A stretch of DNA of 64,000 nucleotides, from assembly GCA_003598015.1 (NCBI GenBank), contig QZKE01000006.1, positions 3,188 to 67,187 on the forward strand, written 5' to 3'. The stretch is from Actinomycetota bacterium. Its GTDB lineage: Bacteria; Actinomycetota; Geothermincolia; Geothermincolales; RBG-13-55-18. A program made the translations under genes and the position numbers. Under the pieces are notes generated by a model, which did no database searches, was not told where the DNA came from, and worked only from the letters and a program-made list of their open reading frames with translations. Numbering within the stretch: the first letter of the stretch is position 1; each line of letters opens with the position of its first letter. Below are positions 1-64,000 of the stretch, piece after piece.

Positions 1-3000
1 GTCCCCGCCTTCATTTGGGCAATACCTACGGAAGGGTCTCCAAACAACCTGCCAACAGTGGATTTAAAGCTGCCCACGACATAAGGAGCAGCGTCATACA
101 GTAAAGAGTACCAAGGGAAGAGCGCCCTTCGTCCATAATTCCACACATTGCCCCAGAAACCTGATCCTGGCTTCAAGGTAGCTTTTGCCCATGCACTGAA
201 AGACATTCTCTCATCGTTGCAGCTCTCCCAGGCGATTATAGATGCAAGGATTTTGGGATCGTCTATTCCAAAGTGTTTTGCCGTATCTTTTATCTGGTCC
301 CAATACTCCGCTACCGTGGGAAGTCCTATATCCTCCACCTTCCCGCGATTAAACAAGCCGTAGATAAATGTGAATAACAGGGGGCCTCCCGACCCCAACT
401 CATGTGGATCCGGCACATCACCGCTTGTAGTTCCCCCACCATATAGGCCGAAGATTCCTAAGAATCCCGCTAAGCCAGGGTGGGCATTGCTGCCAGCCTC
501 GATGGCCGCTTGGCGCGCCGCCAAGAGCTTGTACATGGTCTTCAGAATAATGTTAATTATGTTATCCGCTTCACTTCCGCTATCTGACGGATTATTTGAG
601 GGGTTATCATTTTTTGCGGCCTCTTCCTCGTCCGGAGAACTAGGACCGCCACCTCCGCCTGCAGCATGCTTCTTCCCCGTCAGGTCGCTGTAATTCACCG
701 GGTCGCAGGCGCAGTAGGGGTAGTGGTTCTGGGTTATGGGCTTTTCCATCTCACCGGGCATGGGGTCCTCGGAGAGGAAACGGCCGTGGACCGGTGAGTA
801 CCATCTGGCCCCCATCCAGGTGATGTTTGCTGAGGGGTCGGTGTAGTCGGACTGGTAGCCCAGGTCGCAGGGGAGCGTGCTCGAGAGCAGGCCTCCGTAG
901 GGGTCGTAGACGCGGGAGCCGGAGAGCTCTCCCTGTGCGTTGAGGGAGAAGGTTATGTCCTGGTGGGGGTCCAGCCCCAGGTAGCTTATATCCCCCGCCG
1001 CCTCCTGGGAGAGATGGGTGCCCCCGGGGGTGAGGGTGAAGGAGACCTCCTGGGCGCCTACGCTCTCCCCCGTCTGGTTAAGGGAGGTGCCGTCGTAGGA
1101 GAAGGAGATGGCGGCCGTGCCGTCGTCCCTCTCCGCCAGCCTCTTCAAGGGGTCGTAGGTGAGGGAGAGGTCCGTACTGCCCTTTTCGTAGGAGACGAGG
1201 CGGGAGAGGGGGTCGTAGGCGTAGGTCTCCAGGGGGTTGCTGCCCGCGTCCAGTATGCACTCCAGGTTGCCGAAATCGTCGTAGGCGTAGGTGGTACCGT
1301 CCGGTCCCGTCTCCAGGCGATTGGCGTCGTCGTAGGTGTAGACGGACTCCTGCCCTCCTTTGTCTATGCACTCCAGGTTGCCCGCCTCGTCGTAGTCATA
1401 GGTTATATCGTTTGCGGTGCTGGGAGCGTCGAAGCCTGTGAGCCGGCCCAGGGAGTCGTAGGCGTAGGAATACTCTCCGCTGCCCTCGGAGAGGCCTGTT
1501 ATATCCAGGCTCTCCCTCTTCCCCTGCCCGTTGTAGGCGTAGGTGAAGGAGGCCTGGAGCTGCGAGGTGTCCATGCTGGCGTAGGCCGCCTGGGTTGCGG
1601 TCTGGCCGCCCTCGTAGTAGGTGTAGTCTATGTGTCCCTCCTCCGCGGGCAGGGCCAGGGAGGAGAGGCGGCCGTCGTCATCCCAGGTGAGGGAATAGTT
1701 CCGGTAGGCGGGGTCGGTCACGCCCGTGAGCCGGCCCGCCTTATCGTAGGCGTAGGTGGTGGCCCCGGACTCGGTCTGGCGCAGCGCCAGCTCCCCGGAG
1801 GCCAGGTACTGGTAGCTGGTCTGGTAGCTCTCCGCCCCGGCGGTGGAGGTGACCTGGGCGAGGCGCCCCGTGGCGGGCTCGTAGAGCATATCCACGCCGC
1901 TGTCCCCCTCCTGCGCGCCGGTCAGGTTGCCGCACTCGTCGTAGGCGTATTCGATGAGGGCAAGCTGGGTGGAAGGCTCGTCCATGGCCCCCTCGGCTAT
2001 GAGCCGGCCGCGGCCGTCGTAGGCGAAGGTGAGGGAGCGGTCGGGGTCCGGGCTATCGAAGGTCCGCTTCGTCATCTCCCCCCAGGCGTTGTAGGCGTAG
2101 ACCTCCGTCTCTCCCACCGGGTTCTGCTTTGCTATGGGCCATCCGCAGGCGTCGTAGGTAAAGGAGGTGGAATTCAGCCTTGCGTCTGTGGTCTCCAGCA
2201 GGTTGCCGGTGAGGTCCATGTCGTAGGCGGTCAGCGAGGCGGTGCCGGTGCCGGTACGGGCCTGCTCGTCCCAGGGGCCGGACCACTGCTCCACCCGCCG
2301 CAGGCGGGAGAGGCCGTCGTAGGTGTAGCGGGCGGCGTCCCTGCCCCCCTCCGTCTCCCCCTCCAGGGTGAGGACCACCCTGCCGGCGGCGTCGTTGCGG
2401 AAGGTGGTGCCTATCCTTTCGTCCCCCTCGTAGGGGAGCTCGCTGCGGATCAGGCGTCCCAGGATGTCGTGGTGGTACCAGGTCTCGTATCCCAGGGGGC
2501 TCTGTATCTTGTAGAGGTTCCCCTCCAGGTCGTAGGAGTAGGTTGTGGTGTAGGCGGCTCCCCCCTCGCCCTCTATGATCTGGTAGATCCTGTTGGAGAG
2601 GTTGTCGTAGCGGTACCTCGCCGTCTTGAAGATGTCCGCGGTGGGGGTTGACTGCTGCCTGACCCTCTCCTCGATGACGTTGCCCGACTCGTCGTACTCA
2701 CGGAGGGCGTAGTAATCCCCCGGTCCCTCGGTCTGCACCTCCCGTCCCAGGTCGTCGTAGGTGCGGGTGACCGCCCTCCCCTCCGGGTCGGTCTCTCTCA
2801 CCTTGCGCTCGGAGTCCGAGTACTCGTAGGCGTAGGTGCGCTCGGACGCGGATTCGCCGGCAGCCGCGGGGAGGATCTTCTTGGTCATCCTGCCCGCCGC
2901 ATCGTACTCGTATACGGTTGTGCGCACGGCCTGCCCGGAGCCCGCCGTCTCCCACAGCAGGTTGCCGTTCGCGTCGTATCTCCAGGTCCTTACGTACGGG

Positions 3001-3191
3001 CCAGAGCCCCTCCCCCATCTCTCCATGATCTTCTTTCCCAAGGGATCGTAGGAATAATTGATAAGCTGATCCGGGGAGGAGTAGGTATGGTCCCCGTCGG
3101 TAGTGTCATTGTATATGTTCTCGCGGGTCTCGGCGGCGAGTAGGCCGTCCACCTGGTATTCAAATGACTGAGTAGTTACCATCCCCACCAT
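1..3191 (-). CDS. Orphan Rhs/YD-repeat cassette 2: core 3' segment fused to a lysozyme/SLT-like tip; 3' end lies beyond window start
   Basis: Manual minus-strand translation is open from the TAG at 3273-3275 down to position 1. It is absent from the ORF track because it has no stop in the window. First ATG is at 3191. It contains YD repeats (YAYDxxGN, YTYDDLGR). Core-end motifs WMGARWYSPVHGRFLSEDP and YPYCACDPVNYSDLTGK lie at about 700-830. It is very similar at nt level, by eye, to 5665-8131. Confidence 0.7.
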   Translation of the reverse strand, partial: MVGMVTTQSFEYQVDGLLAAETRENIYNDTTDGDHTYSSPDQLINYSYDPLGKKIMERWGRGSGPYVRTWRYDANGNLLWETAGSGQAVRTTVYEYDAAGRMTKKILPAAAGESASERTYAYEYSDSERKVRETDPEGRAVTRTYDDLGREVQTEGPGDYYALREYDESGNVIEERVRQQSTPTADIFKTARYRYDNLSNRIYQIIEGEGGAAYTTTYSYDLEGNLYKIQSPLGYETWYHHDILGRLIRSELPYEGDERIGTTFRNDAAGRVVLTLEGETEGGRDAARYTYDGLSRLRRVEQWSGPWDEQARTGTGTASLTAYDMDLTGNLLETTDARLNSTSFTYDACGWPIAKQNPVGETEVYAYNAWGEMTKRTFDSPDPDRSLTFAYDGRGRLIAEGAMDEPSTQLALIEYAYDECGNLTGAQEGDSGVDMLYEPATGRLAQVTSTAGAESYQTSYQYLASGELALRQTESGATTYAYDKAGRLTGVTDPAYRNYSLTWDDDGRLSSLALPAEEGHIDYTYYEGGQTATQAAYASMDTSQLQASFTYAYNGQGKRESLDITGLSEGSGEYSYAYDSLGRLTGFDAPSTANDITYDYDEAGNLECIDKGGQESVYTYDDANRLETGPDGTTYAYDDFGNLECILDAGSNPLETYAYDPLSRLVSYEKGSTDLSLTYDPLKRLAERDDGTAAISFSYDGTSLNQTGESVGAQEVSFTLTPGGTHLSQEAAGDISYLGLDPHQDITFSLNAQGELSGSRVYDPYGGLLSSTLPCDLGYQSDYTDPSANITWMGARWYSPVHGRFLSEDPMPGEMEKPITQNHYPYCACDPVNYSDLTGKKHAAGGGGGPSSPDEEEAAKNDNPSNNPSDSGSEADNIINIILKTMYKLLAARQAAIEAGSNAHPGLAGFLGIFGLYGGGTTSGDVPDPHELGSGGPLLFTFIYGLFNRGKVEDIGLPTVAEYWDQIKDTAKHFGIDDPKILASIIAWESCNDERMSFSAWAKATLKPGSGFWGNVWNYGRRALFPWYSLLYDAAPYVVGSFKSTVGRLFGDPSVGIAQMKAG

Positions 3192-3272
3192 GGCCGCGTA
3201 ACCCGAATTGTTGACATCATCATAGGCGAAGAAATCGTATCCCCAGGCCTCCAGACCGACGGGTATGATATG
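700..3272 (-). repeat. Rhs core 3' homology block, copy C (orphan 2)
   Basis: Aligns by eye codon-for-codon with 5665-8131 and, more distantly, with 10358-12960. Indels checked are multiples of 3. Confidence 0.8.
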
Positions 3273-3517
3273 CTAATTGCATCATTAGAGAATATATTAG
3301 ACAAGCAAAATACCTTAATGACAGTGAAGTATTTCCAGCTTGTTATAGTTAGGTAAATCAACTCTTCTATAGCATTGAGCCAGATAAATGGAAATCGTTG
3401 TTGGGGCGGTTGCTTGGTAAGGTAACTTGGAGGGTCAGAGATAGAATCGCCATCAATTATTGCAGTTACAGTCATCACGGGATTATCCTTCCTGTTTACG
3501 CTTTTCATATATTTCAA
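3176..3517 (-). CDS. Hypothetical 113-aa ORF reading across the AT-rich spacer / orphan-2 junction; possibly a remnant
   Basis: ORF track only. The N-terminal ~80 codons lie in AT-rich DNA. The last ~30 codons are an alternative frame of Rhs-homologous DNA. No recognisable motif. Confidence 0.2.
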   Translation of the reverse strand: MKYMKSVNRKDNPVMTVTAIIDGDSISDPPSYLTKQPPQQRFPFIWLNAIEELIYLTITSWKYFTVIKVFCLSNIFSNDAISISYPSVWRPGDTISSPMMMSTIRVTRPWWGW

Positions 3518-3843
3518 AGTAAGGAATAACTATAAACGATATAAGGATAACCCCCTGTTTTTCCGTTTTAAACTCTGGGGAATATTCGGGGGAATAAGCG
3601 ATGAGCGTAGCTGGAAGATAACAATTACAATGTTTACAATCTTTGGTGCCAGCATCTTTTTATTCTTCCTAGTCGTTCTAATTTTGAGTCTGTAGACAAC
3701 TTTTGTTGGACGCTAGAGTATAAAGGGTGACGTAGAATAGGGTCGAGACTAAAAGGCGGCCACGTCATGAAATAGATTGCTCTCCAAAGTGCCTACCTTG
3801 GATCATGGATAGTTGCGCTTATAATTGCGCTTATAATTACCAA

Positions 3844-4632
3844 TTATTCAAAATACAGATTCTCTATAAGATACTCCACTTCATCATCATTGACTTCGCC
3901 CAATTGATTTTGCACTGTTGCTGCATAAGGTATTCCGTCTCTAAATATCAGAAGTCGATCTTGTACAAAGACATCCTCTTCCCTCTGTATTTTGTGAGTA
4001 AAATGAATGCCACAGAATCCGCTTCTTTCGAGTTGGAAGGCCTCTATCCGTGGGGTTTCACCAACGATCGAGAATTCAGCGTACATCTCTTGCATAGCTT
4101 CCTCGATGTCTTTTCTGTTATCCATTACAAAACGCTTCATCTCCCTTAGGTTCCTTGTTTCCGGCGGTCCACCATTCTCGCCAAGCCCGTAAAAATATGC
4201 AATCTTTGAGGAGGTATGGGCTATGAATATCTGTCTATATCCACTGCTGTCAAGATAAAACGCGTCTAGTGATAAACCTGGTTCTTCCTGCTTTGCAGCC
4301 TCCGCCTCTTCGTCGAACTGCCTTCCAACCACCTGCTCATATCCGTCTGGAGTACCAATCATCTTCAATTGAGGGTGGGCTATATATCGAAAAATACCAT
4401 AGCCGACCATTACAGACGTAAATATGCACACAATGATTGCCAAGATTAGGCATATTATCTTCCAGGCGCTCCAATTTATAGAACCTCGTTTCATTGAATA
4501 TAAAACATTGTCAGGATAACAAGTTGAAGGGCACCCCTCATTTTCACTTGCATATAATTCCTCACTACATCCGATGCAAGACTCATTGGATAAGTCGTTT
4601 TCAGCCCCACAGTGAGGGCATAATATAGGCAT
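3844..4632 (-). CDS. Zinc-ribbon / single-TM protein, candidate immunity protein for orphan-1 tip
   Basis: 262-aa ORF. N-terminal CPHCG...CIGC zinc-ribbon motif. One hydrophobic helix (WKIICLILAIIVCIFTSVMVGYGIF). AGGAG 4 nt upstream of the ATG. Low GC. Sits directly 3' of the orphan-1 stop on the same strand. Confidence 0.65.
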   Translation of the reverse strand: MPILCPHCGAENDLSNESCIGCSEELYASENEGCPSTCYPDNVLYSMKRGSINWSAWKIICLILAIIVCIFTSVMVGYGIFRYIAHPQLKMIGTPDGYEQVVGRQFDEEAEAAKQEEPGLSLDAFYLDSSGYRQIFIAHTSSKIAYFYGLGENGGPPETRNLREMKRFVMDNRKDIEEAMQEMYAEFSIVGETPRIEAFQLERSGFCGIHFTHKIQREEDVFVQDRLLIFRDGIPYAATVQNQLGEVNDDEVEYLIENLYFE

Positions 4633-4792
4633 ATTCTCCTAGTCCTTCCTGCTACGTTAACATTTACTTTATTAGGCTTCGCATAACTTCATCAAACCAA
4701 TTTCGAATTCATGTTCGAGATAAAGCATTTTCCGATATTGCACATTGAATAGGTGGATGTTTCGATATGACACGATACACGAAGAATTATCC

Positions 4793-7700
4793 TCAATCCT
4801 TCTTAGGCCACCACCATATTGAACCTCCCACACCTAAGGGAAAACCTATGCTAATGCTAACTGATGGGTTAATATCCCTATCTTGCTCAAACTCAATCCC
4901 TACAGGTCCTGCCTCTATTTCTACAGTGGGTCCTGGCTCCTCTTCAGGAGTCGAATCATACTTGTATCCGGCGCCGAAGCTGAATCCATAGATTCCAAAC
5001 TTTACATCGACTCCTGAATTGGTATCGTAAGTACACTTGACACCCGGAATGCTGCCTGAAACATACCCACTAACTGGAGATATACTCAGATAACCATAGA
5101 GTTTCAAAAACAGCTTCGTTTTGTAATTACCATAACCATAACCAAAAGTATCTCTAATCATTGATTCCAATTCTAATTCGGTTAGAATTCGATTTAGTTC
5201 GGATTCATCCAATGAAGCAATCGCAAGCAAGCCTTCCATAAAATTCCTAAACGCGATATCACCTTCAGCTTTTCTTAGCTTAGCAATGGTTTTTTTCAAA
5301 CCCGCTACGGAGAGATCTTCCATTAGATCTTCCATCACCCCATAATGATGTAACAGGTTCTCAATATTCATAGCGGATTCCGCAAGTATTAGTCCTTGCC
5401 GCCAGGGATTTTTAAGACCGGCCTCTATCGCAGCTTTGCGCGTTTCAATGATCTGGTTTTTAATCCGCTGAATAATCCTCCTTCTATTCCACCTCTCTCT
5501 CTCGGCTACTCTTTCGGCCTGTATGGGATCCGCCATGGAATCCCAGTACTCGCCGGTGGATGTGCCTTCGGGAGCACTTGATACATCCCAGCTAATGGTT
5601 GGTTCGGCTGCGTCACTTTCGTTGATATTGCCTCCATTTGGATCGTAATACTTCCCCGAAAGGTCATTGAAGTTCACCGGGTCGCAGGCGCAGTAGGGGT
5701 AGGGGTTCTGGGTCATGGGCTTTTCCATCTCACCGGGCTTGGGGTCCTCGGAGAGGAAGCGGCCGTGGACCGGTGAGTACCATCTGGCCCCCATCCAGAT
5801 GAGGCTTGCTGATGGGTCGGTGTAGTCGGACTGGTAGCCCAAATCGCAGGGGTCATCTCCCGAGAGCTGGTTGCCATAAGGGTCGTAGACGCGGGAGCCC
5901 GAGAGGTTGCCGGCTGAGTCCAAGGCGAAGGTTATGTCCTGGTGGGGATCCAGCCCCAGGTAGCTTATAACCCCCGCCGCCTCCTGGGCCAGGTGCGTGC
6001 CGGAGGGGGTGAGGGTGAAGGAGACCTCCTGGGTTCCCGCCGTCTCCCCCGTCTGGGCCAGGGAGGTGCCGTCGTAGGAGAAGGAGAGGATGTCCTCGCC
6101 CTCGATCCTCTCGGCCAGCCTCTTTAAGGGGTCGTAGGTGAAGGAGAGGTCCGTCTCCCCCTTAACGTAGGTCTCGAGACGGGAGAGGGGATCGTAGGTG
6201 TAGGTCTCCAGGGGGTTGCTGCCCGCGTCCAGTATGCACTCCAGGTTGCCGAAGTCGTCGTAGGCGTAGGTGGTGCCCTCCGGTCCCGTCTGCAGGCGGT
6301 TTGCGTCGTCGTAGGTGTAGGTGGAGGCACCCTTGGCGGTGAGGTTGCCCGCCTCGTCGTAGGCGTAGGTTATGTCGTTTGCGGTGCTGGGGGCGTCGAA
6401 GCCCGTGAGCCTGCCCAGGGAGTCGTACTCATACCCGTATTCGCCGTCGCCTCCCGCGAGGCCGGCGACCTGCACGCTCTCCCGCTTGCCCGCGTCGTTG
6501 TAGGCGTAGGTGAAGGAGGCCTGGGGATCCAATTCATCCATGCTGGCGTAGGCGATCTGGGTTTCGGTCTGGCCGCCCTCGTAGTAGGTGTAGTCTATAT
6601 GGCCCTCGCCCGAGGGCAGGGCCAGGGAGGAGAGGCGGCTCTCGTCATCCCAGGTGAGGGAATAGGTCCGGTAGGCGGGATCGGTTATAGACGTGAGCCT
6701 GCCCGCCTTATCGTAGGCGTAGGTGGTGGCCCCGGCTTCCGTCTGGCGCAGCGCGAGCTCCCCCGATTGCAGGTACTGGTAGCTGGTCTGGTAGCTCTCC
6801 GTCCCGGCGGTGGAGGTTACCTCCGAGAGGCGCCCCGTGGCGGGCTCGTAGAACATATCCACGCTGCTGTCCCCCTCCTGCGCACAGGTCAGGTTGCCGC
6901 AGGCGTCGTAGGTGTAGTCGATGCGGGCGACCTCCGTCAGGGGATCCCCCTCCACGGCCCCCTCGGAGGTGAGCCGGCCGCGGCCGTCATAGCCGAAGGT
7001 CAGGGCGCGGGAGCTGCCCGAGTCCGGATAGGCCCGCGCGGTCATCTCCCCCCAGGCGTTGTAGGCGTAGACCTCCGTCTCCCCCACCGGGTTCTGCTTT
7101 GCTATGGGCCAGCCGCAGGCGTCGTAGGAGTAGGAGGTGGAATTCAGCCTTGCGTCTGTGGTCTCCAGCAGGTTGCCGGTGAGGTCTATGTCGTAGGAGG
7201 TAAGCGATGCGGTGCCGGTGCCGGTATGGGCCTGCTCGTCCCAGGGGCCGGACCACTGCTCCACCTGCCGCAGGCGGGAGAGGCCGTCGTAAGCGAGCCG
7301 GGTGGCGTCCCTGCCCTCGCCGGCTTTCCCCTCCAGGGTCAGGGTCACCCTGCCCAGAGCGTCGTTGCGGTAGGTGGTGCCTATCCTGGTCTGCCCCTCG
7401 TAGGGGAGCTCGCTGCGGATGAGGCGGCCTAGGAGGTCGTGGTGGTACCAGGTCGCGTATCCCAGGGGGCTTATGGTCAGGTAGTGGTTCCCCTCCAGGT
7501 CGTAGGAGTAGGAGGTGGTGTAGGTGGCTCCCCCCTCGCCCTCCACGATGCTGTAGATCCGGTGGGAGAGGTTGTCGTAGCGGTATCGCGCGGTCTTGAA
7601 GATGTCCGCGGCGGGGGTGGACTGCTGCCTGACCCTCTCCTCGATGACGTTGCCCGACTCGTCGTACTCACGGAGGGCATAGTAGTCCCCCGGTCCCTCG

Positions 7701-7915: not shown

Positions 7916-8131
7916 CTTCTCCCACAGCAGGTTGCCATTGGCGTCGTATATCCAGATCTTCTCGTGCGCGGTATCTCCCCGCGCCCAGCGCTCCAGGACC
8001 TTCTTGCCGAAGGGGTCGTAGGAGTAGGTGATGTCCTGGGCGGGGGAGCGCTCATCGGGGTTTCCGTTGCACCTGGTCTCCTCCGAGAGGAGGCCGTCGC
8101 AGGTGTAGTCGTAGGAGGCTATCTCGGTGAA
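5665..8131 (-). repeat. Rhs core 3' homology block, copy B (orphan 1)
   Basis: Starts 26 nt after the stop of the WG-repeat gene. Matches main-gene residues from about DYDYFCDGLLSWETR onward. Confidence 0.8.
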
Positions 8132-9340: not shown

Positions 9341-12300
9341 TCACCAGGAATCACCAGGATGGCCCGGATTAGTATAACCGACACCTATATCTACGAATAG
9401 GTATGTGTTCGACCAATTATCTGGATTTTGATCATAGCCAAGCCCTAGCAAATCACTAAAGGCATCGATAGATCTATCGAGCTTGTTTCCTAACACCCCT
9501 ATACACCCAGAGGTGCCTGCAGCTCCAGCATCCTCATGTATTAGAAACACCCCTTCCTGTATGAAATTGTCGTTTATATCTCTACTACGTGATGTTTGAT
9601 TATATAGCCATTCCATGGTGGAGCCTTTCATACCTACATTGCCGGCAGGTCTCAGTCTTATTACCCAATCCCCAAAACCTGGAAGCCAAGATTCTGTTTC
9701 TGGATTCTGTCTCCTGGTTAGCCTCCATGCACCCCTTGGAATAGGTCCAATGTCCTCTTGGGTCATCTGACCACCTGGCTGACCCGAATAAGCATCAACA
9801 TGGAACAGGCGTACCTTTCTGCCTCCCCCAAGATACATATACAAGTCAAGATACTTACCATCAAACGTCATTTCGGTATGGCCCGGGCAGAAATAATGTT
9901 TTACATCTCTCCAGAATCTCGTTTTCTGGTCAATGGTCATATTGTTAAGAACATTTATATCTGTTCTCATTAGAAACTCATCAAAATTATCAGACTCTAT
10001 TGCCGCAACTACGACTGCACCTAGACTACCCTCTAACTCAACGTCACGGTCATTCTGAATATCTTCTATTATATCTCTCAAGTATTCCTCCGCTGGATCC
10101 GGCGGGTCTTCTCCGCTTGTATGTTTATCCTGCACCAGTCCATACTCCTTGGCTTTATTCACGACCTCTTCTGCCATGCAAAGCAACCGGTAGGCCTGAT
10201 AGAGATGTTGCAGCGTCTTCTCCAGGTGATCTCTCGTATTCATCAAGTACGAAGGAGGCTCCATGCCGGCGCGGATGTAGAGGTGTATTGCATCTTGTAT
10301 CTGTATCAAAGCCCCGGTGACAGCCTGAATCTGCTGCGCAAGATCCTCCTTTGGCCCCATCCCCGTGGGGTCGAAGGCGTTTATAGGGTCGTCCTTGCAG
10401 TAGAGGTAGGGGTGCAGGGAGAGGGGGTCGCCTGTCTCGCCCTTTAAGGGGTCGACCGAGATGAACCGGGTGAGCTCGGGTGAGTACCAGCGTGCGCCCA
10501 TCCACACCAGGCCGGAGAGGGGGTCCTCGTAGTCCTCCTGGTAGCCCAGGGATGAATCGACGCTCCCCGCCACGGTATTCCCGTACGGATCACATATCCT
10601 CCCTCCCGTGAGGCTCCCCTGGCCCGAGAGGGTGAAGGAGACGTCGGTGTGGGGGGAGAGGCCCAGGTAGGACAGGGTCCCCTGTTTGTCCTGGGCCAGG
10701 TGCGTGCCCCCGGGGTCCAGGGCGTAGGTGGCGAGGGCGCCCCCTGCCGCGTTCGTCTCTTGGATCTGGGAGAGCGAGGCGCCGTCGTAGCGGAAAGCCC
10801 GCTCCGTCTCTCCGCCCACCTTCCTCTCCGAAAGGCGTCCCAGGGCGTCGTAGGAGAGGGTTACCAGGGGGGCCTGCGCGCTCTCCTTATAGGAGACCAG
10901 CTTCCCGAAGCCGTCCCAGGTGAAGGTCTCCGTGCCCTTCTGTACGAGGTTGCCCACCTCGTCGTAGGTGTAGGCGCCCTCGGGGCCGGTGGTTATCTGG
11001 CCCGCGTCGTTGTAGGAGTAGGTCTTGGTCTGCCCTCCGGTGGTCTGCTGCTCCAGATTGCCGCAGAGGTCGTAGTCGTAGGTTATGTCGTTTGCGGTGC
11101 TGGGGGCGTCGAAGCCCGTGAGCCTGCCCATGCCGTCGTAGGCGTAGGAGTAGGCGCCGGAGAGGGCGGTCTGGGAGGGCACGTTCACGGTCATGCCCGT
11201 CCGCCTGCCCCGGTCGTCGTAGCTGTAGTCGTAGGAGGCCTGCAGGGTGTTGGATGAGTCGTAGGCGGTCTGGGTCTCCGTGAGGCCCTCGGCGTAGTAG
11301 GTGTAGTCTATATGTCCCCCCGAGGCTGGGAGGGAGGCCCGCTCCAGCAGGGAGTCGGGGCTCCACTCGAAGGTGAGGGTGCCCCCGCAGACGGAGTCGG
11401 AGGAGGCGGTGAGCCGGCCGGAGATGTCGTAGGAGTAGTTGGAGGAGGCTTGGGTCTGGCCGCCTGAAGTCAGGATGCGGGAGCGCAGCTCCCCGGAGTC
11501 GTAGTAGCCGTAGGTGGTGGAGTAATCCCCCGCCGCTCCCTCCGCGTCGCAGGAGACGGAGGAGAGGCGGGAGGCGCCATCGTATGAAAGGGAGATGGTG
11601 CGGCCTGCGTCCACCCCGTTCGCCCTATCGTATACCGCCCCGGTGAGGTTTCCGGCATGATCGTAGGCGTAGTTGATGACATCGACCTCCGAGGTCCCGT
11701 CCAGCGCCCTCTCGGCTGTGAGCTGGCCGCGGCCGTCGTAGTCGTAGTCGATGGTGCGGTCGGGTTCGGGCTCGGTATAGGTGTGGGTATCCGCCTCCCC
11801 GTATGCGGTGTAGGTGAAGGACTCGGCCTGGCCCAGGGGGTCGGTCTTGCTGGTGGCCCGGCCGCAGGCGTCGTAGGTGTAGGAAGTGGTCTTCTCCCGG
11901 GCATCCGTCTGGGAGAGGAGGCTGCCCGTAAGGTCCACGTCGTAGGAGGTTGTGGCCCCCTCGCCCCCCGCGGGCACCGTATACGGCCCTGGGCCCGCCC
12001 CCGTCCAGGCATCCGTCCACTGCTCCACCCGCCGCAGGCGGGAGAGGCCGTCGTAGGTGTAGCGGGTGCCGTCCGGGTCCGCGTCCCCCTCGAAGGTATG
12101 CGTCTTCCTCCCCAGGGCATCGTAGGTAAAGGAGGTGACCACGCTCGCGCCCCCGGAGTGGGGCAGGACCTGACGCCGCAGGAGGGAGAGGCTGTCGTAG
12201 GCGTAGGTGGTGGTGTTGCCCCCCGGGGTGGTGGTGCTGGTGAGGTTCCCCCCATGGTCGTAGGCGAAGGCGGTGGAGAGGAGCAGCTGCTGCCCCCCGT

Positions 12301-15300
12301 CCTCCGAGAGCACCCGCTTCTCTACGAGCCTGCCCAGGTCGTCGAAGCGCTGGAAGGCCTGGCGGAAGGTGTCCGCTCCGACGCCCGCCTCCTGGCGGGA
12401 GGACTCCCGGATGACGTTGCCGCCGGCGTCGTAGGCGCGCAGCACCAGGGACTCTCCTGGAATCTCGGCCATCTCAACCCGTCCCAGGTCGTCCAGGGTG
12501 CTTATAACGGTCCGGCCCTCCGGGTCGGTCGCGGTCACCTTGCGCTCGGGGTCGGAATATACGAAGGATATGGTGCGCTCGCCTGTGGTCTCGCCGCCCG
12601 CGTCGGGCAGGATCTTGGCCAGCGGGCGATTGGCGCCGTCGTAGGTGTAGGCGGTGCTGCGCAAGGCCGTGCCGTTCCCGGAGGCCTCGGCCACCAGGTT
12701 GCCCGAGCCGTCATAGGCATGCAGCTGGACGTAGCTCTGCCCGCTCCCCAGGTCCCAGCTCTCCCGGGTCTTCTTCCCCGCGGGGTCGTAGGAGTAGGTG
12801 ATCTGCTGGGAGGGGGAGGTGCCCCCGGGGTTGGTATTGTTCCTGGTCTCCCAGGAGAGGAGGCCGTCGCAGAAGTAGTCGTAGTCAGAGACCAGGGTGG
12901 TGCCGCCTATGCTCCCGTAGGTCCCCAGGGAGAAACCGCCCGAGGCTTCCCCCACCGCCGCCCATACGTGCTCAACCTTTCCGAGGCCGTTGTAGTCGTA
13001 GGTGCGGTGGGAGTAGACCGCGTCTTCGGTGCCCTCTCCGTCGCAGATCGTCTCGGTGGTCACGTTGCCCAACATGTCGTAGCCGCGGTGCGCGACCACA
13101 CAGGTGGGAGCTTCATCCGGATACGAGCATATCGCCGCCTCCTGCACCGTCTTGCCCTGAGCGTTGTAGGCAAAGGAGATTGTGGCCGCGGGTGATGCCG
13201 GTCCCGTCCTGGTCTCCGTGAGCCTGTTGCCCGCGGGATCGTATTCATAAGTGGTGGTGATATCGCCCATGCTCTCCCCGGTGGTGCTCGCCTGGGCGAG
13301 CACGCGGCTCGCGGCGTCGTAGGTGTAGTTCACCTGCGCCTCGCGCCAGGTGAGGGCGTTCAGGTTGGATAGGGAGGGGTCGGGCACGGGCCGCGTGGTC
13401 CTCTCGCAGATCACGTTGCCCCGCGTGTCGTAGCTCTTCACGGTGCGGTAGTACATCTCCCCGTAGAGGGCCGAGGTGAAGCGGCGCTCCTCGTAGGCGG
13501 GCCGGCCCGCCGCGTCGTAGCCGTATGTGACGCATCCCGTGGAGTTCGGGTCCACCCTCTTCTTCACCTGGCCGTCGGCGAAATACTCGTAGGAGGTCAC
13601 GCGGTCCTCCCCGTCCACCTGCCGGACCAGGCGCCCGGCGTCGTCGTAGAAGTATCGCGTTTCCCTGCCCGCGTAGTCGCTCTCGGAGAGCAGAAAGCCA
13701 TTGGTGTCGTATTCCTTTGTCGCGCTGGTGTAGAGGGGATATTGAACCCAGCCGCCCGCGGGCGGGTTTGAAGTGTCGCCGGACGTATATACCGTTCTGG
13801 TCCATTCGCGGTCGTCCTTGTAGTACGTGTAGCCGGTCATCAGCCAGACGGCCTGCGGGTCAGAAGATGTATCCCCCCTGCTCCTTATGGTATATGCCAG
13901 GTTGCCGTTCTTGTCGTAGCGGGTGATCTCGGTGGGATTGAGGGTAGCCCCTCCCACGTTGATGGTGTAGCTGGTGTTCTTCTTCGTAACCCCCCGGAAA
14001 CCGTCCGCGACGTCGTCGTCGTACGTATACTCGTATTTGACAAGGCCCGGCCCGAAGGGCATAGAGGCCCCCAGCTCCTCGCTCTCAATCCTCCCATCCC
14101 CGGTATAGTCGTAGAAGTTAATGCACACCTGCGCCCCGTCTCCACTGGGTTGCGCCGGGTTCTCGTTCCAGTCCGAGAAGAGGTCCTCGCGGGTCAGGTC
14201 GCCATAGGCATCGTATATGTATTGCATGGTTGGTTCCTGCCCGTCCTCTTCGGGCCCCGGCTCTCCGTTCACCCTGGGCATGACCTTCAGCGTGGGCAGG
14301 CCCGGATTATTAACGGGCTCCGACGTGTCGTAGAAGTATAGGGTTTCGCTGAGGTCGAAATCTTTCACTTTCACAAGGTTGTTGTTACCGTCGTAGTCAT
14401 AGTACTTTGTATTCCCTGCCCCGTCAGTCTCGGAGGTGAGGCGGTCGCGCTCGTCATAGGTGAACTCCCTCACTCCCCCGTCGGGGCTGATGATGCGCTT
14501 CACCAGTCCCTGCTCCGAGGTGAACTGGGTGATGCGGCCCGCGGGGTCCCGGACCGACTTGCCGTTGCCGTCGTCCCCGTAGGAGTAGATGGTGGACTCA
14601 CCGGCGTTGTTCACCTCCTGGATGAGGCGGTAGAGGGTGTCGTAGCGGTGGGTGGTGGTGTAGCCCCGGCAGTCGGTGACCATGGTCATATGGGAGGGGG
14701 TGGCGTAGGAGAACTGCGTGGCGTGGCCGTACGCGTCCTCCGTCTTGCTGACCATGCCCGCGTTCGCCTCCCCTTCGGCGTAATAGGAGATGGTCTTTGA
14801 GGTCTCGTGGATATCGAGATTTTCGGGTTTGGCGATGCTCTCCAGCCGGTCCTGGAGATTGTATTTGTATTCGGTGGTCGCCCCGTAGATGTCCTGCACG
14901 TGTTCCAGGTTAGCGCTGTTATATGTGTATCCCACGGATATGAGATAGGGATTCTCTTGCCCGTTAAACTGGTTGTTGTATTCGAGCTTGGTTATGTGTT
15001 CACCATCCCAGGTGATATCCAAGCATCTGAATGTCCCCTCACTACCCGGCGCGGTGATCTTGTCCAGCTTGTTGTCGTCTCCGTAATCGAGCGTCAGGAT
15101 GTTATCGCTTGCGCCGTAATCGTCGACGATACGGACCAACCGCTTCGTCTCAGCGGGATCACCATCAACGTGGTCGAACTCCCACAGGTTGCCCCCGGGG
15201 ACCTTGAGGGTGTAGGGGGTGCTGTAATCGGGGTTTCCGGGATCGCTGCCCATCCCTTCGAACCTGCCCGCAGTGAGGTCGTCGAAGACCGTCGGCGGGG

Positions 15301-18300
15301 GCTTGAAGGTATCGCCCTCCTTTGTGTATGTGTCCACCCGGCCGTCGCCGCGGTGCACCTTGAGCGCGGTCATCGCCGGCGGGCTGCCGTTATCGTACAC
15401 CTCCTCGATATACACGTTATAGCTGTAGTCCCAGCCGTTGCCCACGGCGCTCTCGGGATAGGTGCCCCCCGGCTTATAGGAGTTGTAGGTGCGCTTGAAC
15501 TCGATGTCGATGCCCCGCCCGGGCAGGCTGACGTCGGTGGCCTCCTCCGTATAGCTGCCCAGGGAGGTGTTGATGCCCTCGTAGAAGCCGCAGAAGGTGT
15601 CGAAGCCCAGGGCGTTTAGGTCGTCCACCTCGTTCTCGGGCTCGTAGCACATCGTGCCGCGGCCGACATAGTTGAAATAGACCTTGCCGCCGGCGATAAC
15701 CGCGCTGGGTACGGGGCTATCCGCCACCAATTCTCCGTCCGTATAGGGAGACTCCCAGCGCAGGGCGCCGGAGTAGGCGTCGAAGACCATGAGCTTGGTG
15801 GTTGGGTAGTCGAAGGTTCCGACGGTAGTGAAGCCCACGTAGAGAAGGCCTCCTGCAACTGCCGGAGCACCCAGATCCGGGCCCCCGTTAAGCTGATAGG
15901 TGGAGTAGTCCTTGCACCACATGGTGGAGGCGGTGGTGGCATCGAATGCCCAGAGTTTAAGGTAGGTCTGGCAGCCAACGTTGTGGTTGGATACACAGTA
16001 GAGTATGCCGTTAGCATAGGCGATGTCATCTTCGAGCGACGAATAGACGTTCTCGCTCTGATCTCCGCCATATATCAATTGTTCGTTTTGGATCTCTACT
16101 ATCCTGATGCGGGATTGACTTAATCCGTACCAATATTTCACGTAGATGATGCCGTTGTGAATGGTGGGCACGCCTCCATAGTTCCACTGGGGCCAGGTGG
16201 TATCGGGATCGAGAATTAGGTCGTCTTCTTCCGCACCGGTGTTGATGTCGACAGCGCGCAGGCGGCCGCCCTCGGTGAATACCGCCATTCCCTCTAAGAC
16301 CGCCGGCCTCGACGGCCCCCACGGCAATTCAAAGGCGCGGTTCCATCTCTGCACGCCAGGGTTCTCCAGGTCCACGCAGACGAGGTGCGTGGTGGTCGTG
16401 AGCAGGAGCCGGTCTCCGATCGCAACCGGGTTGTTCGTGAACTCCTCCCCCGCAGGGGCGTAGTCCGTCACGAAGTACGGGTCGCCCTCCAGGCTTAGAT
16501 TATCCGCATTCAGCACGTGCAGGCTGTGGTCGGTCACCACGTAGGCCTTCCCGTTCGCCACGCACATGCCCCGGATTCGGTAGTCGGCTGGATCCGTCTC
16601 TTCAAACACGGCTTTCCTATCCCCCGCCTGCTCCCCCGTGGTATATATCTTCAGTACGGTGAACTTTTCATCCCCGCTCTCCGCCACGTAGAGGAAGCCG
16701 CCGCTCACCACCGGGGTTTTGCGGTTCATTTTATTATTTGTGCTATGATCCTCCCATTCTTGCGCGAAGGGCCAGAACATCTCCCCGGGCTTGATCCCCG
16801 CATTATAGTGGGTGTTCTTGAGGTCGTAGCCCTCCATGGGCCACTCCGGCACGCCCGAATAGTAGTAGGGATATGCGCTCGAGGCTGCGGCGTTGCCGGC
16901 CTGATCGAACGCCTTGATGAGGAAATCGTAGTAGCCGAAGCCCCTGGCGGTGAGGTCTACCGTCGCCGTCACATCGTAGTCTACCCCGCTCAGCGGCTCC
17001 TCGTATACCTTCTCGAGAGGCGCCCCTCCGTCGGTTGCCCAGATCTCAACCCTCTCGAGCCCGGACGCGGGCGCGGGATCGGATAGGTGAAAACTGAACT
17101 TGATTATACCCGGCTCGCCTTCGATAGGATTCTCCAGTTCTGCCACACCGATGGTGGGGGGCGTGACCTCTAAGGTGATGGTGTCGGAGTATACGGGGGA
17201 GTACACCCCGCTTATATCGACGAACTGGCAGCGCACCTCCTTCAGGCCCTCGACGGTGGGGAAGAAGGCGGAGTCCAGGATCCAGTCGCAATGTAGCACC
17301 CCGGTGTAGGAGCCCCCGCCGGGCAGCAGCGGCTTGGCATTCTCGGGCACGTAGTCCGGGTTGGCCGGGTCGTAGTTCCAGATCTTCACGTACTCGGCGT
17401 CCTCGGCAAAGAGTTTTAAATTGGTGAAGCCGGTATTGGTGAAATCTCCCGCCACGTCCTTGCCCATTACCTCTATGCTTCCCGAGGGCGGGGCGTTGTC
17501 CACATGTATGATGCGGATGGCCGTGCGTTGATGGCCGGCCGCATCCGAGGCTTGCAGCGCCAGGACGTGCTCGCCGTCGTCCACAGTGGTAGTGTCCCAG
17601 GTGAAGATATCCTCGGGATAGGGGCCGGTGCCTTCTTCCTCGATTAGTAGGTTGAGGTTCTCTCCGTCCCAGTCGTAGAGTGAGCAGGATACGATGTTGC
17701 TATCGTAGGCCACCCCCGCTATGTGCACCTGCTCGTACACCCTCCCCTCCTCGGGAGAGTCGATACGGACGTCGGGGAAGGTGTTGTCGGGGTTTACATG
17801 CACCCTGGCTACGGAGGAGTTGCCGGCCGCATCCGAGACAGAGAGTTCCAGCCACAGCCCCGTCTCCGCCAGCTCCGCGGTGTCCAGGCTGCCGAGGTTT
17901 ACGCCCGGCGGCAGGGTGTCGGATACGATCTCCGTCCACAGGGCGTCCGGGTCCTCGGGGTCGTCCTGGGTGTACCTGAGGCGCCAGGAGGCGAAGTTGG
18001 CATCGGATGCGGTGCCCTGCACGAACAGCGTTCCGCATGCCGCCTCCTCCGGCGCGGGCGAGGTGATGGCCGCGGCAGGGGGCGTGTTGTCCACGTTCGC
18101 CTGCACCGTGGTCTCGCTCACCAGGCCGGCTTGGTCCCGTACCGCCAGCTTCAGGGTGTAGAGGCCGTCGGCCGCGGCGGTGGTGTCCCAGCTATAGAGG
18201 AGGCCGCCCGCGGCCGGGGTCGTCATCTCTGGTGAGAGGGGGATCTCAGCGGGGCCAGTCCCCTCGCCGTAGAAGAGCTGGTAGGCGGTGAAATGCTCGT

Positions 18301-21300
18301 CCGTTGCCGTCCCGGTGATCTCCGCCGTCCCCCGCAGGTGTCCCCCCTCCTGGGGGGAGGAGATCTGGGCTGTGGGGTAGGTGCGGTCCACCTCCACGGT
18401 CACCTGGCCGGTGGAGATCTTGCCATAGGCGTCCTCCACCTGCAGCCGGAGGGTGTGGGGACCCGCGCAGGTCTCCATGGCGTTCCAGGTGGCGAGCACC
18501 CCGCCCGTGACCTCCTCCGTGCCGTACAGGTCCGCCTCTTCGTAGGCGTAGGCGCGGAAGGCGAAATCTCCGCTGCCCGCCTGCCAGGAGGTGCCGTTGT
18601 AGGAGAAGGCACCGCCACCTGGGTAGATATCCGAGCCGTACTCGCCCCACCTGGCGTAGTTATCCCCGTCCGTCTGGCCGTCGGTGCGGTAGATGACCAG
18701 GGCGTAGGTCCCCGAGGGGTCCAGGTACTGGCCCCGGAACTCGAATGGGTACCAGTGCTGTCCGGGGACGGCGTCGATCTCGCTCATGGCGTAGGTGGTC
18801 TCGGATACGGCTATGGCCTCGGAGGTGGGCACGCCCCCGGAGCATGCGCAGACCTTGAGCCCGATGCGGCAATCGCTCTCACCGATCCTGGTCAGGTAGA
18901 CCTCCGCCCGGTCCAGGTAGGGGCGGTCGGGGGTGAAGGTCTGGGCCAGGTCCAGGGCGGTGGGGGAGAAGTAGAAGGCGGGGTGGGTGCTGGCCTCCTC
19001 CTGGGAGGGCCCGGGGTCGCTCGCGACCGGGGGGATGGGGTAGAAGACGGAGGGGCTCTCCCCCACCCCGTAGGAGAGGAGGTAGCGGTAGAAGTTGCCG
19101 TCCGCAGCCGTGCCCTCGATCTGCAGCTGCCCGCCCACGATGGCGCCCTGCCCCGGCCAGGAGATCTCGGCGGCCGGGTCCTGCCTCTCTATGACCACGC
19201 CCACGATGTCGGAGCTCTCGAGGCCGCCCGCGTCGGTGACGGTGAGCTTTAGGTGCGCGATGCCGTCGGGGAGGCCTGAGAGGTCCCAGGTCTCCAGGTC
19301 CCCCTCCTGCACCGGGCCCGTATGCGGGGGGCTCAAGGGGGTCCATTCGCTCTCGCCCTCCAATCTGCATGTAAGCTGCCAGGATGAGAGCAGGACGTCG
19401 TAGGCGGTGCCCGTGACCATGAGCGAGGGGGAGGTGAGCACCTCGCCCTCCTCCGGATAGGTGATCTCGGCGTCCGGATAGGTGGAGTCCCAGACCACCT
19501 CGAAGGAGTTGGATTGGCCCGCATGGCCGGATCCGTCGTCCACGCTCACCTGGCAGGAGGCCGCGGCGGCGGATATGACCGCCTCCCCCGACCAGACACC
19601 GGAGGTGAAGTCGCCGCTGGCCTGCGGGGCTACGGTGCCCGTGGTGTCGGATATGTTAACCGAGCCCGCATAAGAGACCGCGGTGTTGCCGAAGGCGTCG
19701 GTGGCGGTTATGGCCAGGGGGAAGGCCACCCCCGCCGTGCGGGGGGTGGATATCTCGGATATGGCGAAGTGGTCCACGGGTCCCGCGATCACCTCGCTCT
19801 GCACGGTGTTGGTCGCGCAGGGGCCTGTCTCGGCGCAGTCCGCCTGCGCCTGGTTGGTTATGAGCGTGCCCGCCGGGGCCTGTGCCTTTACCTGGGCGTT
19901 AAAGGAGAGCTCCTGCTGCCCCTGGGAGGGCAGGGTGCCCAGGTCCCAGGTGATCTTGTGCTCGGAGGGCTCGTATACCCCTCCCCCCGTGATGCCCGAG
20001 ATGTTCTCCAGGCTCTCGTCCAGGTAGTCCGTAACCGCGGTCTGGGTGGCCTGCCCGGCGCCTGAGTTCACCACGCCTATGGTGTAGGCCAGGGTGCCCT
20101 GGGGCTGCACCTGCGCCAGGTCCACCTCCTTGCAGGTGGTGGAGAGGTCGGGGAGCAGGGCGGCCACGTCGAAAGTGTTGGAAGCACCCGTCTTCCCGTC
20201 ATATGCGCAGGTGATGACGTCGGCGGTGTAGGGGGCGCCGATGGTCACCGCGCCCGTGAACACGCCGGAGGCGAAGCCGCCGGGCGGCACGTCGGTCTGG
20301 CCGTAGCCGTCGTATCCCCAGCCCGCGATGGTGCCGCCTGAGCGCAGGGCCAGGCAGTGGTGGTCCCCCGCGGATATGGCGGTGAAATCGTTGCCGGAAG
20401 GCACCGTCGTCTGACCATAGTTGTTGTACCCCCAGGCGGCCAGGGTGCCGCCGGTGCGCAGGGCCAGGGAATGGTAGTTGCCCGCGGAGATGGCGGCGTA
20501 ATCGTTTCCCGCGGGCGGGGTGGCCTCGCCGTGCTCGTTGTATCCCCACCCCGCGATGGAGCCGTCCGCGCGCAGGGCCAGGCAGTGGTAGGCCCCGGCG
20601 GAGATGGCCACGTAGTCGCTGCCGGAGGGCACGCTTGTCTGCCCGTTATTGTTCAGCCCCCAGGCCACCAGGGAGCCGTCGGTCTTCAAAGCCAGGGAGT
20701 GGTAGTAGCCGGCGGAGATGGCCGCGAAATCGTTTCCCGCAGGCACGTTCGTCTGGCCGTAGTAGTTCTCGCCCCAGCCGGCCAGGGAGCCGTCCGCTTT
20801 GAGCGCCAGGCCGTGGAAGCCGCCCGCGGCCACGGCGACGAAGTCCGTGCCCGCCGGAGGGGTGGCCTGGCCGTGGTTGTCGTAGCCCCAGCCGGCCAGG
20901 GAGCCGCCTGAGCGCAGTGCCAGGGAGTGATTGGCGCCGCCCGCCACGGCGACGTAGTCCGTGCCCGCGGGCACGCCGGTCTGGCCCTGGTCGTTTTTGC
21001 CCCACGCCCACAGCGACCCGCCGGAGCTCACCGCCAGGGAGTGGTGGGAGCCGGCATCCAGGGCGGCGTAGACGTTCCGGGTCTCCGTGGGGCTGATGGC
21101 CCCTGTGAGGTCCGAGAGGCCTGCCACTTCCTCGAAGTCGGAGATGGTCTCCCCCGCGGCGTCCTTGGCGTAGATGGTCACCGCGAAGGGCTGTCCCTCG
21201 GTCTGGGGAGAGGATACGGGATCGAAGGTGAAATGGTGAAGGGGATCGGGGGCGATCACCGTCGTTTGGACGGTGTTGCTCACATGGGGCCCCCCGCCGC

Positions 21301-21703: not shown

Positions 21704-21783
21704 TTCAATCCCCCCAATATGCCCGAAGCCCGCCGCGGCTCGATATCGACGTTCATTGCGACTGCGCCCTTGGATCTCTTCAA
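21700..21783 (-). CDS. Candidate 27-codon upstream ORF created by duplication of the rhs start region
   Basis: TTG AAG AGA TCC AAG GGC (MKRSKG, identical to the rhs start) preceded by the same GGGGGGATTG. The frame ends in a TGA that overlaps the rhs TTG start (TTGA). Confidence 0.3.
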   Translation of the reverse strand: MKRSKGAVAMNVDIEPRRASGILGGLN

Positions 21784-21990
21784 TGCAATCCCCCCATGTG
21801 CCCGGAGCTTACAACGCGTCTTATATCGCATACGCAAAACGTGGTGAGGTAAGAAGAAGTAGTCATGCCCGCGCGCTCATCCGTACCCCCCTTCGTCCTC
21901 GCAGCCGCCGCCGGCCCGCCGCATGCGCTCGGCCGGCGCGCTGCCGAACCTCGTTTGCTTACCGGCGGTCAATAGCCCCACTGGCGTCTA

Positions 21991-63022: not shown

Positions 63023-64000
<978 letters not shown>

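Follow-up and report, generated by a model that had tools for sequence, protein, structure and literature searches.

Enterobacterial rhs systems are delivered by a type VI secretion system (T6SS), and many of their toxin tips are nucleases with a cytoplasmic site of action. Among Gram-positive bacteria, the WapA protein of Streptococcus suis is a Sec-exported Rhs with downstream 'Rhs orphans', and some tips of this system are toxic only in the periplasm (PMC12704120). In Salmonella, the substrate for recombination between the main gene and its orphan was found to be 95% identical over 522 bp (PMC3967940). Rhs-DUF2778 fusions are also known (10.1101/2020.02.18.954545), and a 'Tox-LD-peptidase' carried on RHS scaffolds, including those of Actinobacteria, was catalogued in 2012 (PMC3482391). 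The locus described here lies on a stretch of 64,000 nucleotides (nt), referred to as the window, of the 67.7-kb contig QZKE01000006.1 (positions 3,188 to 67,187, forward strand) of the Actinomycetota metagenome-assembled genome (MAG) GCA_003598015.1. It comprises one full-length rhs gene, encoding 4120 amino acids (aa), followed by two truncated 'orphan' cassettes, each made of a partial Rhs core and a toxin tip. It is probably a WapA-like, that is, Sec-exported and surface-tethered, Rhs polymorphic-toxin locus.

The mechanism proposed with this reading is as follows. The main protein would be exported by Sec, held by a lipid anchor and carry its Rhs cage on a long stalk. A core-end aspartyl protease would free its tip (tip 1), which would damage the peptidoglycan of a neighbour as an L,D-peptidase, and the WG-repeat lipoprotein encoded next would neutralise tip 1 on the external side of the producer's membrane. 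Tip 2 is predicted to have a membrane-tethered partner with a C-terminal domain that is probably external, and the candidate partner of a tip-3 homolog is a predicted lipoprotein. Since the predicted partners are extracytoplasmic and two of the three tips resemble peptidoglycan enzymes, all three toxins probably hit the envelope from outside. The orphans would be 3' ends, displaced or stockpiled, that stem from a second lineage of Rhs cores and have no translation of their own, while their immunity genes are probably expressed and would protect against neighbours. Cassette turnover would run via conserved flanks, with the core upstream and the immunity-gene 3' end plus an AT-rich block downstream. 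The present main gene could re-use an orphan tip only via identical patches of 50-54 nt, or via another rhs of the orphan-core type elsewhere in the genome.

Layout of the locus and the full-length gene

The features of the locus are given below.

21703-9341, minus strand: full-length rhs, 4120 aa, an open reading frame (ORF) with no internal stops
9341-10357, minus strand: tip 1, 338 aa, helical in its N-terminal region, with a Tlde1/YkuD-like L,D-peptidase domain at the C-terminus (predicted)
9258-8158, minus strand: WG-repeat gene, candidate immunity gene 1, 366 aa, or 363 aa from ATG 9249 (ORF and Pfam)
8131-4793, minus strand: orphan 1, a 5'-truncated Rhs core plus tip 2, open over 1112 codons (frame analysis)
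5650-4793, minus strand: tip 2, 285 aa (delimited by the core-end motif)
4632-3844, minus strand: 262-aa gene, candidate immunity gene 2 (ORF)
between the 262-aa gene and orphan 2, minus strand: AT-rich block, 570 nt
3273-3899, minus strand: conserved block, made up of the whole AT-rich stretch and the final 56 nt of the 262-aa gene (comparison with contig L162, described below)
3272-1, minus strand: orphan 2, a 5'-truncated Rhs core plus tip 3, running off the window (frame analysis)
22230-23771, minus strand: guaA (GMP synthase), right-hand border of the island (NCBIfam NF000848, 807 bits)
21704-22229, minus strand: guaA-rhs intergenic region (read from sequence)

The gene order and coordinates of the full-length gene and two orphans had been put forward in an earlier note on this DNA, and were borne out by the ORFs, frames and family models. 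The YD/RHS repeats (PF05593) were recognised in the main protein, orphan 1 and orphan 2 with E values of 1e-55, 7e-39 and 4e-33, respectively, and TIGR01643 matched all three. The RHS-associated core TIGR03696 (curated cut-off, 32.5 bits) scored 70.5, 58.7 and 57.6 bits, respectively, ending at each tip boundary. From the core-end motifs, the core/tip boundaries were placed at 10357 (main), 5650 (orphan 1) and 671 (orphan 2). The GC content falls from ~0.65 to ~0.42 at all three, as the note had described, with 10357 holding and its other positions (~5665 and ~700) shifted to 5650 and 671. The GC content at third codon positions (GC3) is 0.87-0.90 in the cores and 0.40-0.52 in the tips, and by composition both the tips and the small genes are foreign DNA of low GC. 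The DPxG core-end motif attributed to all copies was found in the main gene (DPINAFDPTGM); the orphans carry D-L-x-G instead (DPVNFNDLSGK and DPVNYSDLTGK), the second DP of the cleavage motif PxxxxDPxGL being replaced by DL.

The main gene starts at a TTG behind the Shine-Dalgarno sequence GGGGGGA, and its product is composed as follows.

aa 1-28: signal-like N-terminus with a lipobox-like LFAAGC at its end (sequence pattern)
aa 36-146: DUF11 (Pfam)
aa ~215-480: seven RCC1 repeats (Pfam)
aa 525-636: DUF11 (Pfam)
aa ~1060-1431: immunoglobulin (Ig)-like Big_7/Big_13/Big_3_3 (Pfam)
aa 1894-1988: PQQ_2/BamB-like propeller (Pfam)
aa 2043-2126: DUF6531 (PF20148), E 2e-11 (Pfam)
aa 2127-3782: YD/RHS repeats and RHS-associated core
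aa 3783-4120: tip 1

The N-terminal part is predicted to be a Sec/lipoprotein signal followed by adhesin-like domains (~2000 aa), which is WapA-like with a different retention module. Neither PAAR, VgrG, LXG/WXG, two-partner secretion (TPS) nor SpvB domains were found in the main protein with Pfam, and no LysM or wall-binding repeat was found in it. With regard to T6SS linkage, no PAAR, VgrG or chaperone domain was present in the main protein, and the housekeeping ORFs sampled in the rest of the window showed none either. Upstream of the gene, the guaA-rhs intergenic region contains a putative sigma-70-like promoter (TTGACA-N17-TATATG near 22025-21995) and a direct repeat, in which 21800-21763 copies 21721-21683, that is, the rhs ribosome-binding site and first 6 codons. 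The repeated start, ~80 nt upstream, opens a 27-codon upstream ORF, the stop of which overlaps the real TTG start, and this duplication could be a leader, a translational-coupling element or a duplication scar.

Toxin tips and candidate immunity proteins

The three tips proved unrelated to each other, in agreement with the difference noticed earlier. Tip 1 is predicted, from family matches and a structure model, to be a Tlde1/YkuD-like L,D-peptidase. Against the Pfam family Tlde1_dom (PF10908) it scored 24.8 bits (E 3e-5; cut-off, 30.1 bits), and its homologs matched YkuD and Tlde1 weakly and below threshold. Only five relatives were found among 1.84 billion representative proteins by exhaustive phmmer, and a word-indexed protein search returned nothing. 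The His-Cys pair of tip 1, H4056 (codon at 9538) and C4067 (codon at 9505), lies 11 residues apart, and every complete homolog retains the His, Asp and Gly-Cys within the motif LIHEDxGxxGTxGC(I/V)GV. In Tlde1/Tae5, the essential pair H121/C131 is 10 residues apart, a spacing shorter than that of YkuD (10.1101/2020.02.18.954545). The AlphaFold model, built from a 6-sequence alignment, reached a predicted local distance difference test (pLDDT) score of 63. In the PDB, Foldseek matched it significantly only to two L,D-carboxypeptidases, Csd6 (E 5e-5) and Pgp2 (E 7e-4), with a template modelling (TM) score of ~0.3 over the whole tip, and Tlde1a (7uma) was matched to tip 1 by profile search with an E value of 0.8. 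A weak match between the helical region and colicin Ia (E 0.008) was dismissed as coiled-coil noise. PDB sequence searches with tips 1, 2 and 3 and the tip-3 profile were negative, and no match to the tips was found in PHROGs, NCBIfam or by phage tblastn.

The gene that follows tip 1 encodes seven WG repeats (WG_beta_rep, E 1e-88) and likely starts at ATG 9249 behind GGAGGG, with ...LLSSSC at the end of a predicted, lipoprotein-like signal peptide. Tip-1-like toxins are followed by WG lipoproteins with 36-42% identity to this one twice in the MAG contig L155 (GCA_034188985.1, JAXHVT010000002.1) and once in L157 (GCA_013178005.1, JABLXL010000048.1). The association was thus observed four times in three MAGs, the window included, which is good contextual evidence for the WG protein as the immunity protein. 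No paper in the literature searched linked WG_beta_rep to immunity. WG-repeat lipoproteins are put forward as a candidate immunity family against L,D-peptidase toxins. In L157 (2978-4751), the toxin is a 174-aa tip-1-like remnant without the catalytic Cys (P0013), followed by an intact 346-aa WG lipoprotein gene, which looks like a case of 'immunity outlives toxin'. A HEPN/nucleotidyltransferase pair lies just downstream of this remnant.

Tip 3 is complete at 357 aa in the database protein P0023, and only 2 homologs were found in 5.8 billion clusters; a metagenome scan with tip 3 returned nothing. It contains, in order, the motifs KHFGIDDPKILASIIAWES, VGIAQMKAGTAQ, DPSQAIEMVGGQLAW and LQYILTTGYNAGLG, with ES at 227-222, GIAQM at 26-12 and YNAG past the end of the window. 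These correspond to the ES, GLMQ and AYNxG blocks of Escherichia coli MltC, EmtA, Slt70 and MltD, with ~48 residues inserted after ES. When the tip-3 family was compared by hhalign with the Slt70/EmtA/MltC/MltD domains, a probability of 72% (E 3e-5) was obtained with the GLMQ-to-AYNxG part aligned, versus 0.2% for the tip-1 and tip-2 families used as controls. The homolog P0014 matched the soluble lytic transglycosylase (SLT) family PF01464 with an E value of 0.014, below the cut-off. Tip 3 is thus probably an SLT-like lytic transglycosylase, as judged from its motifs and profile alignment. In the metagenomic contig L156 (JGI 3300037501, 656-3232), a tip-3 homolog is followed by a 231-aa lipoprotein. 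The genes downstream of the homolog there encode this lipoprotein, a transmembrane protein and a lysozyme of glycoside hydrolase family 25 (GH25).

Tip 2 is a glycine/aromatic-rich domain without an assigned fold or family. Over its first ~80 aa it is 46-58% identical to the tip starts on the Rhs core ends P0009 and P0012, the tips of which continue with a C-terminal domain unlike that of tip 2. Since the P0009 core end is of the orphan type and that of P0012 of the main type, this N-terminal sub-domain is mobile between core lineages. The other ~200 aa matched only themselves among the 1.84 billion representative proteins. The sole relative was a partial gene on L162, a 2.1-kb contig from run SRR13394437, with 44% identity over 73 aa (tip-2 aa 205-274, E 2e-9). 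In L162, this tip-2-like glycine/aromatic-rich C-terminus is followed by P0004, which is 46% identical to the 262-aa protein of the window. A helix motif '...AAIEAG(L/S)' was noticed ~60-80 residues past the core end in tip 2 (~5420-5440), tip 3 (~490-510), P0009 and P0012, and suggests a shared pre-toxin sub-domain placed before unrelated toxin domains.

The 262-aa protein (C4536_00935) has a zinc ribbon at its N-terminus, a single transmembrane helix and, as its C-terminal part, a domain of ~170 aa ending in NLYFE; its gene has a strong Shine-Dalgarno sequence, and ~10 representative homologs were found. From this domain order, the ribbon is probably cytoplasmic and the C-terminal domain external.

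Proposed origin and maintenance of the orphan cassettes

The core of orphan 1 spans 827 codons (8131-5651) and begins mid-repeat, 26 nt past the stop of the WG gene. In this frame no canonical start precedes GTG 7915, which lies 72 codons in and from which NCBI annotates 1040 aa (RJP35254.1 / C4536_00940). In orphan 2, the core occupies 3272-672 and tip 3 671-1, and the frame extends ~402 nt past the window; the complete product (P0023, C4536_00930) has 1197 aa from ATG 3191, the first canonical start, and its last 134 residues lie past the window. A properly spaced Shine-Dalgarno sequence was found at none of the in-frame starts of either orphan; the main gene, both small genes and guaA have one. 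Both the lack of an obvious ribosome-binding site and the 26-nt distance had been pointed out in the earlier note.

Both orphans begin near the same core position, ~aa 2940 of the main protein. Their cores are 84% identical to each other over 2.4 kb (blastn) and 78% identical in aa, versus only ~65% nt (blastn) and 48% aa identity to the main core. The orphans therefore represent a second lineage of cores rather than copies of the resident one, so that the earlier description of them as repeats of the last ~2.5 kb of the main core did not hold at the DNA level. Between orphan 1 and orphan 2, 359 mismatches (16% nt divergence) were counted, with no stops, four of four indels in frame and a ratio of nonsynonymous to synonymous substitution rates (dN/dS) of 0.48. 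From these counts, the orphan frames are judged to be kept under constraint and not decayed. The decay of frames considered beforehand was not seen, both orphan frames being intact and orphan 2 complete in P0023.

A second actinobacterial orphan array was found in L155 (1-6287). It opens with a core end that carries a diverged Tlde1-like tip, then a WG lipoprotein and a degenerate core stretch containing a stop codon. Next come an orphan of 865 aa, which ends in a tip-1-like toxin, and another WG lipoprotein. Over 261 nt, the core end of this orphan is 93% identical to the one upstream. In a metagenome scan with a core-end profile, only Rhs loci of at most 43% identity were recovered. Tandem core ends were present in 6 of the 70 loci with a core-end match, and such arrays are therefore common.

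The longest run identical between the main gene and orphan 1 is 54 nt (11130-11077 versus 6417-6364), and that between the main gene and orphan 2 is 50 nt (12066-12017 versus 2332-2283), both in ~60% identical surroundings. The 50-nt and 54-nt runs encode RYTYDGLSRLRRVEQW and GRLTGFDAPSTANDITY, and could mark a recombination hot spot or result from plain codon bias. The idea that they prove gene conversion was rejected, as each has a p value of only ~1e-3 because GC3 is ~0.9 and identical residues share their codon 68% of the time. The runs are weak evidence for gene conversion. The orphan of L155 begins beside the same VEQW motif that occurs in these runs.

Downstream, the conserved block (3899-3273) was compared with L162 (1484-2030) and found to be 91-98% identical, the AT-rich stretch itself being 91-95% identical. 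The identity is 69% just upstream of the block, jumps to 98% inside the 3' end of the 262-aa gene and falls to background from 3272 on, exactly where the frame of orphan 2 opens. The toxin and immunity genes adjoining the block are only ~45% identical in aa to those of L162. The window copy differs by a 12-nt tandem duplication and a 72-76-nt insertion. A 41-codon ORF inside the block (3655-3530, MLAPKIVNIVIVIFQLRSS...), with AGGAAG upstream, shows two synonymous changes and one non-synonymous change relative to L162. The block had no match in Rfam and showed no more RNA folding than expected (z = -0.26), and promoter and terminator scans of the AT-rich stretch gave counts equal to the shuffled expectation. 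Comparison with the fetched proteins revealed no similarity past the last 18 residues of the 262-aa protein and no gene remnant. A flank better conserved than its toxin and immunity genes is the pattern expected if cassettes recombine between core and block, and the AT-rich block may serve as a downstream exchange arm, as far as the two sequences compared can indicate.

Several other explanations of the orphans were considered. They could form a silent reserve, in which RecA-dependent recombination with the upstream main rhs within the shared core fuses an orphan tip to the delivery region. The layout is that of Salmonella and E. coli, with a truncated core, no start and an intact tip and immunity gene (PMC3967940), and both the 93% identity of the core ends in L155 and the exact 50-nt and 54-nt matches are in line with it. 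Nevertheless, the identity between main and orphan cores (~65% nt, 48% aa) contrasts with the 95% over 522 bp in Salmonella, a crossover at the short patches would give a chimeric shell of two lineages 48% identical, and the identical runs are only ~1e-3 improbable given the codon bias, so that this explanation is considered unlikely. The orphans as fossils, with core and tip drifting as pseudogenes and the immunity genes alone, or nothing, functional, would agree with their lack of translation signals, with a core lineage that differs from the resident main gene and with the decayed P0013 beside an intact WG gene in L157. However, a frame of more than 3.3 kb stays open in both orphans despite 16% divergence, and the in-frame indels and dN/dS also argue against drift (though this divergence could pre-date displacement), which makes fossils rather improbable.

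More doubtful still is the independent expression of the orphans as truncated Rhs proteins from GTG 7915 and ATG 3191, for example as intracellular toxin-antitoxin-like modules. The intact ORFs of 1040 and 1197 aa and a dN/dS below 1 would suit such proteins, and a toxin-antitoxin-like role was proposed for a Salmonella orphan (PMC7043789). The orphan starts, unlike those of the neighbouring real genes, lack a properly spaced Shine-Dalgarno sequence, and the orphans have no signal peptide. Additionally, the predicted immunity proteins are extracytoplasmic, a poor fit to an intracellular toxin, and half a shell without DUF6531 and the N-terminal plug would be unlikely to enclose one. An assembly artefact, that is, allelic 3' ends of one rhs from co-existing strains joined by the metagenome assembler, is highly improbable. 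The source is a MAG contig, and an independent assembly of the same organism (L001; JGI 3300038436, Ga0394679_034579, 15284-16141), identical in GroEL and the first 286 Rhs aa, terminates within the RCC1 repeats of rhs, a typical repeat-caused assembly break. The copies, however, are 65-84% identical, far from near-identical alleles, which rules out the collapsed or expanded repeat that had been raised as an objection. The junctions are unique (26 nt after the WG gene; the 570-nt block), the main/immunity/orphan/immunity order is repeated in the separate MAG of L155, and the spacer-to-immunity junction is reproduced in the unrelated sequencing run of L162.

The preferred reading, a surface-tethered toxin locus with displaced or stockpiled orphans, has points weighing against it as well. 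Toxin activity, export and immunity are predicted for all parts. The lipobox of the main protein is a pattern match only, and the LSSSC of the WG protein deviates from the canonical lipobox. Of the family searches proposed earlier for the tips and small ORFs, those with tip 1 and its neighbour gave Tlde1 and WG repeats, the Tlde1 match of tip 1 being under the Pfam cut-off and its model only at pLDDT 63. Tip 2 had no match in Pfam, PDB, PHROG or NCBIfam, and its structure model (pLDDT 42) was unusable. Tip 3 had no Pfam (PF01464) or PDB sequence match, its assignment resting on the motifs and the 72% hhalign probability. The orphan divergence on which the maintenance of the frames is judged might pre-date the displacement of the orphans. 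With main and orphan cores ~65% identical in nt, the recombination step is a proposal. Finally, the left border and any tip-3 immunity gene fall outside the window.

Setting and comparison with known systems

The host backbone is actinobacterial, of a deep-branching uncultured lineage, and the island lies directly downstream of guaA (23771-22230), both as the earlier note had it. The next genes upstream of guaA are guaB3, groEL and tsaD. The other ORFs sampled in the window were housekeeping genes (glmS, glmM-like, alr, tsaEBD and groESL), and no secretion-system genes were present among the ORFs checked in the rest of the window. The GuaA protein is at most 71% identical to that of any GTDB species representative, the best being Acidimicrobiia and other Actinomycetota MAGs. 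The comparison of guaA flanks, suggested earlier as a means to delimit the island, showed no Rhs, tip or immunity homologs within 10 kb of guaA in any of 80 loci from related Actinomycetota, and the island is therefore lineage-specific; its borders could not be defined in this way, as these relatives are too distant (<=71% identity). At 63298-63414 (plus strand), Rfam RF01497 was matched with 88 bits. This ALIL pseudoknot is the signal by which IS3-family transposases frameshift, and it points to an insertion sequence close to the far end of the window. Two ORFs without a Pfam match lie amid the housekeeping genes, at 27602-28453 (plus strand, 283 aa) and 42741-44219 (plus strand, 492 aa); the former has no NCBIfam match either, and the gene calls of the independent contig L001 include it.

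As a tentative generalisation, which may well not hold, the Rhs loci of this Actinomycetota lineage could be dedicated envelope-attack systems. Each tip would strike the target cell from outside and be blocked by a lipoprotein or membrane-tethered ectodomain, the WG repeats among them forming an immunity family not recognised before, and cassettes would be exchanged between the core and a ~630-nt non-coding arm. If this were true, a Gram-positive Rhs toxin would have no need to cross a membrane, which is an unsolved problem.

Among the known systems, WapA (Bacillus subtilis; S. suis WapA1/2, PMC12704120) has an N-terminal Sec signal instead of PAAR/VgrG, as is predicted for this locus. Also shared are a large N-region, predicted here to be surface-associated, DUF6531, the YD shell and core, a polymorphic toxin and then an immunity gene, as well as truncated 'Rhs orphans' downstream (PMC12704120). 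In contrast to WapA, which has LysM or wall-binding repeats, a lipobox-like anchor with DUF11, RCC1, Ig and PQQ-propeller domains is predicted here. Furthermore, no srtB or secF-like neighbours occur in the window, the host, a MAG, belongs to a deep branch of the Actinomycetota, and the orphan cores belong to a lineage other than that of the main core. The actinobacterial setting, which had been regarded as unexpected, stands as far as the host is concerned; WapA orphans of Gram-positive bacteria (PMC12704120) and actinobacterial Rhs L,D-peptidase tips (PMC3482391) were already known.

The enterobacterial rhs arrays (Salmonella STM0291/STM0292, E. coli and Dickeya; PMC3967940, PMC3150448) likewise consist of a full-length gene followed by start-less core fragments, each with a distinct tip and its own immunity gene, and with a GC drop at the tip boundary. 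The enterobacterial architecture proposed in the earlier note thus applies to the layout and the start-less fragments, and not to the T6SS linkage or to the near-identity of main and orphan cores (~65% nt here versus ~95% there). Orphans from a foreign core lineage complicate the view of a simple swap-in by homologous recombination. Similarly, the contact-dependent inhibition (CDI) cdiA-CT/cdiI arrays (PMC3150448) carry tandem start-less toxin-tip/immunity modules after a full-length delivery gene; CdiA, unlike the main protein, is a two-partner-secretion filament with a VENN motif, whereas a YD shell and no TPS or filamentous haemagglutinin (FHA) domains were found here.

At the level of the toxins, tip 1 resembles Tlde1/Tae5 (DUF2778, PF10908) in its His and Cys ~10 residues apart within an HxD...G(T/S)xGC context. 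It also resembles Tlde1 and the Tox-LD-peptidase in its fusion to the C-terminus of Rhs and its predicted extracytoplasmic immunity protein, and its fold, as modelled and compared by Foldseek, may be YkuD-like. It differs from Tlde1 in its score below the cut-off, in an extra ~190-aa N-terminal part and in its candidate partner, a WG-repeat lipoprotein and not Tldi1, Imm16 or Imm57. Tip 3 shares the ordered ES, G-I/L-x-Q and YNxG motifs with the family-1 lytic transglycosylases (Slt70, MltC, EmtA and MltD; PF01464), and differs from them in the ~48-aa insert between ES and GIAQM and in being carried as an Rhs tip. Two of the toxin domains have almost no relatives in more than 1 billion representative proteins. 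The kind of system is known, and the current understanding of polymorphic toxins is not overturned; the new details are the specific toxins, the WG-lipoprotein partner, the orphan cores of a foreign lineage and the conserved downstream block. The locus extends the array design known from experiments on Rhs/WapA orphans to an uncultured, deep-branching lineage of actinobacteria.

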